Below are positions 49,018 through 50,267 of a DNA stretch of 64,000 nucleotides, piece after piece. The stretch spans positions 5,821 to 69,820 of the forward strand of contig JBMLOQ010000130.1 of assembly GCA_049242885.1 (NCBI GenBank), given 5' to 3'. How positions within the stretch are numbered: the first letter of the stretch is position 1; each line of letters begins with the position of its first letter. Origin of the DNA: Chitinophagaceae bacterium (GTDB lineage Bacteria; Bacteroidota; Bacteroidia; Chitinophagales; Chitinophagaceae). The notes under the pieces are model-generated. The model had not been told where the DNA came from, did no database searches, and saw only the letters and a program-made list of their open reading frames with translations. The position numbers were made by a program, and so were the translations under genes.

Positions 49018-49638
49018 TTATTTTTGAACTAATACGATTGATCCATTATGACCAGGTACTGAACCAGTAACTAATATATAATTTTGTTCAGGGAAAATTT
49101 TAACAACTTTTAAGCCTTTCATTTTTACTCTGTCGCCACCCATTCTTCCTGCCATTCTCATGCCTTTGAATACACGTGATGCATCAGAAGAGTTACCAAT
49201 AGAACCTGGAGCTCTTTGACGATCATGCTGACCATGAGAAGCCTCACCAACTCCAGAGAATCCATGACGTTTTACAACACCTTGGAAACCTTTACCTTTG
49301 GTAGTACCAACCACTTCAATATCATCACCTTCAGCAAAAATGTCAACAGTAACAGTTTCGCCTAATGCTTTTTGTATAGAGTAGTTTCTAAATTCTTTTG
49401 TAAATCTTTTTGGAGCAGTGCTAGCTTTTGCAAAGTGGTTAATTTCTGCTTTTACGCTGTGCTTTTCTTTTTTATCAACAACGGCTAATTGTAAAGCGTT
49501 GTAACCGTCTGTTTCAACAGTTTTGATTTGAGTAACCGTATTTGGTTGAGCCTCAATAATGGTGCAAGCTGTTTGTTTGCCATCGGCACCAAAAATGCTT
49601 GTCATCCCAATTTTTTTTCCAATAATTCCTTTCATCAT
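49018..49638 (-). CDS. rplC: 50S ribosomal protein L3
   Basis: uL3 (GIIGKKIGMTSIF...GKGFQGVVKRHGF.G). Two consecutive ATGs at the start. Confidence 0.97.
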   Translation of the reverse strand: MMKGIIGKKIGMTSIFGADGKQTACTIIEAQPNTVTQIKTVETDGYNALQLAVVDKKEKHSVKAEINHFAKASTAPKRFTKEFRNYSIQKALGETVTVDIFAEGDDIEVVGTTKGKGFQGVVKRHGFSGVGEASHGQHDRQRAPGSIGNSSDASRVFKGMRMAGRMGGDRVKMKGLKVVKIFPEQNYILVTGSVPGHNGSIVLVQK

Positions 49639-49654
49639 TTGCGGTTTTAAATTT

Positions 49655-49828
49655 GCCCGCGAGGTTTAATAAAGGACATATAGAAGATGAATATCTATAG
49701 TCAATCCTTGTTTGCCAACGACCTTTTCTTTTGTTTTAAGTATTAAACTTAAGTAGAAGTACCGTTGGTAAACAAACCTCGAAGGGCTTGTTTATATTTA
49801 GCCTTCTCACCACTATTAAGTGGGGAAG
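49655..49828 (-). promoter_or_regulatory. GC-enriched multi-stem RNA structure in the 286-nt rpsJ-rplC spacer (candidate cis-regulatory leader or small RNA)
   Basis: Hand-folded on the transcribed strand. The outer stem GCCCUUCGAGG/CCUCGCGGGC encloses the hairpin GUUUACCAACG...CGUUGGCAAAC (10 bp, 1 mismatch) and a second hairpin AAGGAU..UAUAGA-loop-UCUAUA..GUCCUU. An upstream hairpin CUUCCCCAC-UUAAUA-GUGGUGAGAAG is also present. No ORF longer than about 10 codons. Confidence 0.4.
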
Positions 49829-49924
49829 ATAATTAGTTAAAATCAGAGCTCTTTTAATTCCTAATGAACTTGAGAGTTGATATATTTATTTTTTAGAACT
49901 TTTTTTGTTTTGTCAAAACTTTCA

Positions 49925-50230
49925 TCAAGCTTTGATTTCAACCTCAACACCACTTGGCAAATCTAATTTGCTTAATGCATCAACTGTACGTGAACTAGAA
50001 GTGTAGATATCTAATAATCTTTTATGAGTGCATAATTGAAATTGCTCTCTACTTTTTTTGTTTACGTGGGGAGAACGCAATACTGTGAAAATTCTTTTAC
50101 GAGTAGGTAAAGGAATAGGACCTGTAACTACGGCTCCTGTGCTACGAACAGTTTTTACAATTTTGTCAGCAGACTTGTCTACTAAATTGTGGTCGAAGCT
50201 TTGTAATTTTATTCTAATTCTTTGTGACAT
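49925..50230 (-). CDS. rpsJ: 30S ribosomal protein S10
   Basis: uS10 ([18 protein letters not shown]...). The ATG at 50230 gives the canonical 101 aa, and the track extension (MKKWSPN) is rejected. Confidence 0.97.
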
Positions 50231-50259
50231 ATTCGGTGACCATTTTTTCAAATGGAGTG

Positions 50260-50267
50260 CAAATGTA
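50260..50267 (-). promoter_or_regulatory. candidate -7 promoter box (TACATTTG) for the S10-spc cluster
   Basis: Minus strand TACATTTGCACTCCATTTGAAAAAATGG about 30 nt upstream of the rpsJ ATG. It is followed by a CCATTT-GAAA-AAATGG hairpin in the short 5' UTR. Confidence 0.5.

Follow-up and report, generated by a model that had tools for sequence, protein, structure and literature searches.

The window analysed here, a stretch of 64,000 nucleotides, carries an S10 cluster on its minus strand, in which rpsJ is followed by rplC and then by rplD, rplW and rplB. The rpsJ gene (49925..50230, minus strand), whose product S10 is also NusE, lies immediately upstream of the region under study and ends with a stop codon at 49927-49925. 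Immediately downstream is rplC (49018..49638, minus strand), encoding L3 and presumed to be the regulated gene, with its first ATG at 49638-49636. A sequence-only reading of the window had singled out the 286-nt spacer between these two genes (49639-49924, minus strand) as the longest in the neighbourhood, and its coordinates were confirmed, the other spacers nearby measuring 67 nt (rplC-rplD), 65 nt (rplD-rplW) and 98 nt (rplW-rplB). The start of rplC is probably the second of two adjacent ATG codons (49635-49633, within 49633-49638); in relatives a single rplC ATG is followed by AAA GG, and ACG, AAG or AAA stands before the ATG. If rplC begins at the second ATG, as in relatives, the spacer is 289 nt. 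The description of the spacer as GC-enriched was borne out in comparison with its neighbours but not with coding sequence. The structured part has a G+C content of 30-37%, against 17-25% in the adjoining spacers, and since this equals the coding level, the term holds only relative to other spacers. That the spacer holds no credible ORF was also found to be correct, no ORF of at least 30 aa lying wholly within it.

A scan of the whole window with Rfam at gathering thresholds assigned no family to the spacer, and at E values up to 10 the segment 49400-50400 returned only chance matches to microRNA and snoRNA families. A match to the S15-Flavobacteria family was seen upstream of rpsJ and outside the spacer (50199-50267, minus strand), where it overlaps the rpsJ promoter and 5' UTR; its score of 19.6 bits (E = 9.9) falls short of the gathering score, 46.5, and chance likeness in an A/U-rich promoter region is the most likely explanation. 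No second copy of the spacer was found in the 2.6-Mb genome, where BLAST and a covariance model of its 5' half (R2, below) returned the self-match only, and a repeat, MITE or mobile element was rejected on the strength of this single copy. A search of the genome for a target-like complement of the element likewise found none. No intrinsic terminator was found in the spacer, and a terminator or attenuator was rejected accordingly. The spacers also share no conserved promoter motif: only 8 of 131 homologous spacers contain the -7 motif of Bacteroidota, TAnnTTTG, at scattered positions with no fixed place, and an internal promoter that would make the spacer a 5' UTR was rejected for this reason. 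Matches to the sigma-70 consensus were set aside, as this consensus is not relevant to Bacteroidota.

Homologues were then collected. BLASTN recovered the spacer in 25 of 36 Chitinophagaceae genomes and in 0 of 24 other families of the order, and a sequence pattern of the conserved core added 120 more loci, retrieved from Sediminibacterium, Lacibacter, Niabella, Niastella, Puia, Segetibacter, Flavihumibacter, Hydrotalea and Chitinophaga. The resulting set comprised 131 distinct Chitinophagaceae spacers of 205-493 nt, most of them gathered with the junction-core pattern, so that the set is biased to conserved cores. In every homologous locus the element was located between rpsJ and rplC, and this synteny (tblastn) supports the placement of rplC downstream of the element.

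Two covariance models were used to follow the element further, R1 describing a three-way junction (163 positions) and R2 a BoxA-like motif together with a hairpin domain, P1 (68 positions). R1 scored 135.9 bits on the window (E = 5.7e-26), and each model had one match in the window's own genome. Among 120 sampled Chitinophagaceae genera, R1 matched 84 (about 70%) and R2 matched 81, each once per genome and in nearly the same genomes. R1 gave no match in 139 genomes of 25 other Chitinophagales families. R2 gave a single match outside Chitinophagaceae in a class-wide sample, which adjoins neither rpsJ nor rplC and was rejected as a true element. In four of five other Chitinophagales families the rpsJ-rplC spacers measured 3-14 nt, and in the fifth the spacer was 75 nt long. 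The element is thus restricted to one bacterial family, Chitinophagaceae. Two loci filed under other names, a Brevundimonas vancanneytii MAG and Flavobacterium sp. MAG17, carry Chitinophagaceae-like rpsJ and rplC with a Sediminibacterium-type element; mis-binning or a wrong label in the public records is the probable explanation for these contigs.

From 5' to 3' the element consists of a variable hairpin, the BoxA-like motif, P1, a second variable hairpin, the three-way junction, and a tail leading to the rplC AUG. The first hairpin (hp0, GUUUUG-A-CAAAAC, 49907..49919, minus strand) lies just past the rpsJ stop codon and differs in sequence among species. In the window it is weak, at -0.8 kcal/mol; across 108 homologues the segment before the motif had a median minimum free energy (MFE) of -8.6 kcal/mol against -4.2 kcal/mol in shuffles, with 78% at -5 or lower. 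The second variable hairpin (Pv, 49802..49828, minus strand), between P1 and the junction, corresponds to an independent 9-bp hairpin that had been noticed upstream of the junction. Its sequence is not conserved, but the linker that holds it folds in most relatives, with a median MFE of -10.5 against -3.7 kcal/mol in shuffles and 80% of 128 homologues at -5 or lower.

P1 itself (49843..49880, minus strand) pairs UCA-A-CUCU with AGAG-CUC-UGA around a conserved 1x3 internal loop, with CAA/AAAA loops and a variable apical hairpin at 49870-49856; its family form is YCA-U-CUNN...NNAG-CKC-UGR. In 63 sequences 99.1% of cells were paired. Pair 39:79 was CG in 37 sequences, GC in 15, AU in 6 and UA in 5, and pair 40:78 was UA in 39 and CG in 23. 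The covariation score of P1 was reached by 0 of 500 shuffles, and slid controls paired in 32-43%. The 5' strand of P1 (49871-49880; family consensus CAUCUCUCAAU) includes CUCAAU, which may resemble the rrn BoxC RNA bound by Mycobacterium NusA. Two alternative partners for the GUUCUU of the BoxA-like motif were considered and rejected. Pairing with AAGAGC of the P1 3' strand was discarded, as P1 covaries (CUGC/GCAG, CUUC/GAAG) while GUUCUU is unchanged; in the case of AAAGG at the rplC start, the rplC bases are set by the coding sequence.

The BoxA-like motif, AGUUCUAAAAAA (49889..49900, minus strand), is a conserved block, single-stranded in the fold, with the family consensus A-GUUCUU-(A/U)-N-AAA. 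A relaxed pattern ([GA][TCA]TCT[TA], required to lie 30 nt or more ahead of the P1 3' strand) was present in 112 of the 131 spacers, 10-30 nt upstream of P1, while about 12% of spacers gave no match to the motif. The copy in the window, GUUCUAAAAAA, is degenerate and is without the sixth U of the family consensus; in the window's S10-spc cluster this is the only intergenic site of AGTTCT[TA]. For comparison, 28 GUUCUU sites were taken from the rRNA operons of six Chitinophagaceae genomes, all of them distinct from the window's own genome. In these operons A-GUUCUUU-(A/U/G)-A stands within about 15-25 nt downstream of each TAnnTTTG promoter, and more copies occur in the 16S-23S spacer. The rRNA leaders of the six genomes have two or three tandem TAnnTTTG promoters, each followed by AGUUCUUU, and their 16S-23S spacers contain two or three further motif copies, with GUUCUUUGACAUAUUGG just before the 23S gene.

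The base profile of the rpsJ-rplC spacer sites matches that of the rRNA-operon sites (n=111 and n=28, respectively). The base before G is A in 96% of spacer sites and 89% of rRNA sites; the second base is U in 93% (C in 5%) and in 89% (C in 11%), respectively; the third to sixth bases are U, C, U and U in both, at 97% in the spacers; and the following bases are A-rich in both. At the seventh position the spacer sites have A in 67% and U in 32%, and the rRNA sites U in 86% and A in 14%. When the spacers were compared with the rRNA leaders by blastn-short, the BoxA-like motif was all that they had in common. The spacer core GUUCUU(U/A)NAAA is close to the published consensus, GYTCTTTAANA, of the BoxA elements of rRNA leaders, lambda nut and the suhB 5' UTR (Baniulyte et al. 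2017, PMC5725501). BoxA is the site bound by NusB with S10/NusE (PMC5725501; PMC10931766), it represses suhB translation in E. coli, and for a few genera of Gammaproteobacteria a BoxA close to the S10 gene has been put forward (PMC5725501). The spacer motif differs from known BoxA elements in lying downstream of rpsJ, about 250 nt upstream of the next start codon, and in being joined to two large covarying RNA domains, and the copy in the window is degenerate. The BoxA of lambda nut has A at its seventh position, as do most sites in the spacer family, and is followed by the BoxB hairpin, much as P1 follows the motif here. Judged by its base profile, the spacer motif is probably a BoxA-like candidate site for NusB/S10.

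A motif of this kind raises the alternative that the element acts only as a processive antitermination RNA, in which element and BoxA would modify polymerase to pass Rho-dependent sites across the S10-spc operon, with no feedback and no translational switch. The BoxA-like motif is the same in kind as the rRNA-leader sites, the position is intercistronic, long untranslated spacers are found throughout the cluster, and the spacer itself is without terminator or promoter. A precedent is the eps-associated RNA (EAR) of Bacillales, a structured RNA about 120 nt long, which acts in cis on elongation as a processive antitermination RNA and in Bacillus likewise lies between genes within a long operon. 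EAR is, however, not known to contain BoxA and is found outside r-protein operons, and its sequence and fold are unrelated to the present element, as the Rfam scan indicated. Antitermination alone would also leave two conserved, mutually exclusive helices and a covarying hairpin at the rplC AUG (both described below) unexplained, and the motif is missing from about 12% of the spacers that keep all else. We consider this explanation unlikely.

Chitinophagaceae without the three-way junction have a short form of the element. In three such loci a BoxA-like motif is accompanied by a P1-like hairpin, about 20 nt ahead of the rplC AUG, and two others have two BoxA-like plus P1-like units each. In these five genomes the spacers were 90-246 nt, and the P1-like hairpin, CCAA-U-CCCGG..CCGGG-CGC-UUGG, was close to the rplC AUG. 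Since junction-less lineages keep the short form, the junction may have been added as a domain to an older core made up of the BoxA-like motif and P1.

The three-way junction (49655..49787, minus strand) had been drawn by hand from the sequence alone, and the MFE fold of the spacer RNA reproduced it with all of its helices. This fold had an energy of -66.6 kcal/mol (z = -3.0), and 0 of 100 dinucleotide shuffles were as stable. The outer helix P2 (49787-49775 with 49666-49655, minus strand) pairs GCCCUUCGAGG with CCUCGCGGGC; its family form is GCCN-UUC-NNGGUU with AACCNN...NGGC, and it holds a conserved loop, CC-N-UUC-RR-GGUU. P3 (49773-49710, minus strand) pairs GUUUACCAACG with CGUUGGCAAAC and contains the invariant loops GGUACUUC and GAAAAGGUC. 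P4 (49709-49672, minus strand), formed by AAGGAU...UAUAGA and UCUAUA...GUCCUU, has the conserved internal loop GGAUUGA/AUGUCC. The P2 3' arm stops 16 nt short of the rplC AUG, the distance given in the sequence-only reading, and the element closes with a conserved GGCAYAAAC tail that leads to the AUG. A pairing of this tail (GCAYAAAC) with GUUUGU was rejected as it is lost in U30A lineages (see below), and a leader peptide was rejected as the AUG in AUGUCC opens non-conserved reading frames.

Among 86 homologues of the junction, 93.2% of cells formed a standard pair, and changes on both sides were seen in 18 pairs and 301 cells. None of 500 shuffles reached any of the covariation measures, although such shuffle tests ignore phylogeny and the relatedness of the sequences inflates the measures; partners slid by 1-3 columns paired in 36-55%. 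Across the set of 131 distinct spacers, covariation upholds all of the hand-drawn stems. About 60 nucleotides are highly conserved, and the junction has many invariant bases in internal loops and bulges; the loops are invariant and the apical hairpins vary freely.

These data also bear on whether the spacer could be a non-functional, lineage-specific insertion remnant conserved through close kinship only. The restriction to one family, and the fact that other Chitinophagales families do without the element, would suit such an origin. Compensatory changes, however, were found in every helix and in many genera, invariant loops stand beside freely varying apical hairpins, and the single copy excludes a mobile repeat, so that a remnant seems scarcely credible. 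The element is a conserved, single-copy, modular structured RNA.

The junction is not the only conserved fold. A segment at its 5' side, GGUUUGUUU, can pair either downstream, where it contributes to P2 and the base of P3, or upstream with AAACAAGCC, where it forms a 9-bp local hairpin, AAACAAGCC-CUUCGA-GGUUUGUUU (49770..49793, minus strand), that excludes P2 and the base of P3. In 85 distinct sequences 100% of the cells of this local hairpin were paired. Its pair A15:U30 is replaced by U:A in 7 of the 85 sequences, and in 18 of 131 in the larger set, in lineages that read GGUUAGUUU; this pair cannot form in the junction fold. When each fold was enforced, the energy of the junction minus that of the local-hairpin form averaged +0.47 kcal/mol (sd 4.35) over the 86 homologues; 52 of them favoured the junction and 33 the alternative. 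The window itself gave -39.7 kcal/mol for the junction and -36.1 kcal/mol for the alternative. RNAalifold returned the junction as consensus with ribosum scoring and the local hairpin with default settings.

A further hairpin, GCGG-GCAAAUUUAAAA-CCGC (49641..49660, minus strand), reaches to within 2-5 nt of the rplC AUG. It shares its 5' arm with the 3' arm of P2 and can form once P2 opens. The possibility of this GCGG/CCGC pairing had been raised at the outset; it is indeed present in the homologues, where 80% of cells were paired and all four of its pairs change on both sides (GCGG/CCGC, GUGG/CCAC, ACAG/CUGU and AUACGG/CUGUAU). It is absent in several clades, and sequestration of the start site is thus not a universal mechanism. 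Two conserved, exclusive folds of predicted near-equal energy, adjoining a start codon, are as found in regulatory leaders and riboswitches.

The covarying 3' hairpin also helps to weigh a processing or stability element or an embedded small RNA, whereby a cleavage site would split off the rpsJ mRNA or a released non-coding RNA would act in trans. The structure is strong and conserved enough for either, and given the second role of S10 as NusE, it would be sensible to uncouple its amount from that of the other r-proteins. The covarying pairs, however, link the structure at its 3' end to the region where rplC starts, which argues for action in cis. As described above, there is neither a promoter motif nor a terminator to bound a separate transcript, and neither a second copy nor a target-like complement in the genome. 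Such a role therefore seems quite improbable.

A riboswitch, with the junction as aptamer for a growth-state small molecule or ion and the competing helices as expression platform, has to be weighed against the same observations. A conserved, aptamer-like domain with mutually exclusive helices resembling an expression platform was indeed found, although protein-responsive leaders share these features; the extent of conservation, the three-way architecture and the two alternative folds of similar energy would all be compatible with a riboswitch. Riboswitch classes tend to recur in several gene contexts and across broader taxa, whereas the present element occurs in one family and at one locus per genome, and the wider recurrence expected of metabolite control was not seen. 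Its conserved bases are found not in the junction itself but in the internal loops and bulges of helices, which would be more typical of protein sites, and its context is an r-protein gene. We regard a riboswitch as very unlikely. The combination of invariant internal-loop bases, a single locus and a narrow taxon is better explained by a protein-binding leader than by a metabolite riboswitch.

Mimicry of rRNA could be envisaged as a clue to the protein bound, and the spacer was compared with one Chitinophagaceae 23S rRNA, with which shared 8- and 9-mers were at chance level. R1 gave no match to rRNA loci. A likeness between GGUACUUCC..GGAAAAGGUC and the 23S segment AAGUACCCGGAGGAAAAG was dismissed as it depends on a single 8-mer. 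With no rRNA likeness beyond chance, L3, encoded by the nearest gene, and L4, the ligand with precedent (PMC3616713, PMC7247131), are conjectural candidates for the protein bound.

Taken together, the fold is more stable than shuffled sequences, its helices covary and no Rfam family matches it, and these findings make an undescribed, structured cis element upstream of rplC the best-supported class. The sequence-only reading had proposed an undescribed leader of the r-protein type in front of rplC; that proposal stands as to class, but the element goes well beyond the outline given there, since the BoxA-like motif with the P1 domain, the local hairpin that excludes P2 and the restriction to one family are all additions to it. 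As in r-leaders, the covarying structure lies immediately upstream of an r-protein gene and on the same transcript; no promoter motif or terminator lies between rpsJ and rplC. It also overlaps the initiation region, the P2 3' arm lying within 16 nt of the AUG and the 3' hairpin within 2-5 nt of it in many lineages. From these sequence comparisons, we consider it probable, at roughly 60%, that the element is a Chitinophagaceae-specific, cis-acting intercistronic regulatory leader in the S10-spc transcript, which governs rplC and probably the approximately 20 genes behind it.

Several known systems resemble this proposed leader in part. The E. coli S10 leader, which mediates L4-dependent attenuation and translational repression, is likewise a structured mRNA element in the same operon and is thought to serve r-protein feedback. 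That leader precedes rpsJ, has a terminator hairpin at its end and occurs only in Gammaproteobacteria (PMC3616713). Nus factors are at work there too, namely NusA (literature cited in PMC3616713). In contrast, the present element comes after rpsJ, is without a terminator, has a different fold and gave no Rfam match, and it is thus not of the E. coli type. An L4 r-leader candidate of Archaeoglobi is located directly upstream of rplC-rplD-rplW-rplB (Eckert and Weinberg 2020, PMC7247131), and so shares with the present element its position directly before rplC, but it is archaeal, without BoxA and not intercistronic after rpsJ, and had no match in the Rfam scan. The rpsJ motif of Peptostreptococcaceae is a family-restricted r-leader candidate in the rpsJ 5' UTR of Firmicutes (Narunsky et al. 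2024, PMC11109978); it is similarly confined to a family and linked to the S10 gene, but differs in its 5' UTR position, phylum and structure. No description of the element was found in PMC7247131, PMC11109978, PMC8632094 and PMC3616713, or in literature searches on Chitinophagaceae riboswitches and leaders. It is best filed as an apparently undescribed cis-regulatory RNA of the ribosomal-leader kind, in which a BoxA-like module and a two-state junction are combined at an unusual intercistronic position.

As a mechanism for the proposed leader, we suggest that a trans factor would tip the balance between the two folds. This factor would most likely be an r-protein of the operon (L3 or L4), binding to the conserved internal loops of the junction, and the fold balance would in turn set access to the unstructured, A-rich initiation region of rplC. 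Bacteroidota do not use Shine-Dalgarno pairing and depend on an open initiation region. Just past rpsJ, the BoxA-like motif could load the elongating polymerase with NusB-S10 (NusE), in the manner of the family's rRNA leaders. The loaded Nus complex might then shield transcription from Rho across the untranslated leader of about 290 nt and across an operon with long spacers; or the BoxA-like motif might repress translation, followed by Rho termination, as at E. coli suhB. The genes of the cluster are 40-146 nt apart, which makes translational coupling unlikely, and a decision taken at rplC would therefore need a transcriptional arm (Rho versus Nus) to reach the distal genes.

A more specific form of the proposed leader would be a checkpoint that senses S10 (NusE). 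The BoxA-like motif and P1 would load NusB-S10 only when free S10 is at hand, licensing Rho-resistant transcription of about 20 r-protein genes, and the junction switch would provide a second input (L3, L4 or another r-protein) at rplC initiation. We put this forward tentatively, as a conjecture that is on balance rather doubtful. If true, it would amount to a two-input control of ribosome synthesis, exerted on transcription as well as translation, for which no counterpart has been described in bacteria, and would provide the first Nus-factor target outside rRNA in Bacteroidota.

To our knowledge, the balancing of r-protein synthesis in Bacteroidota is largely undescribed. The element offers a concrete RNA with which this could be approached, some 250 nt long, whose helices are clear and whose loops are invariant, and which occurs in natural variants with and without the junction; the covariance models R1 and R2 would permit its annotation across Chitinophagaceae, which are common in soil and freshwater. 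If the BoxA-like motif works, Nus control in this family would extend from rRNA to an r-protein operon, at the very gene that encodes NusE, and the RNA and protein arms of ribosome production would be linked via one factor.
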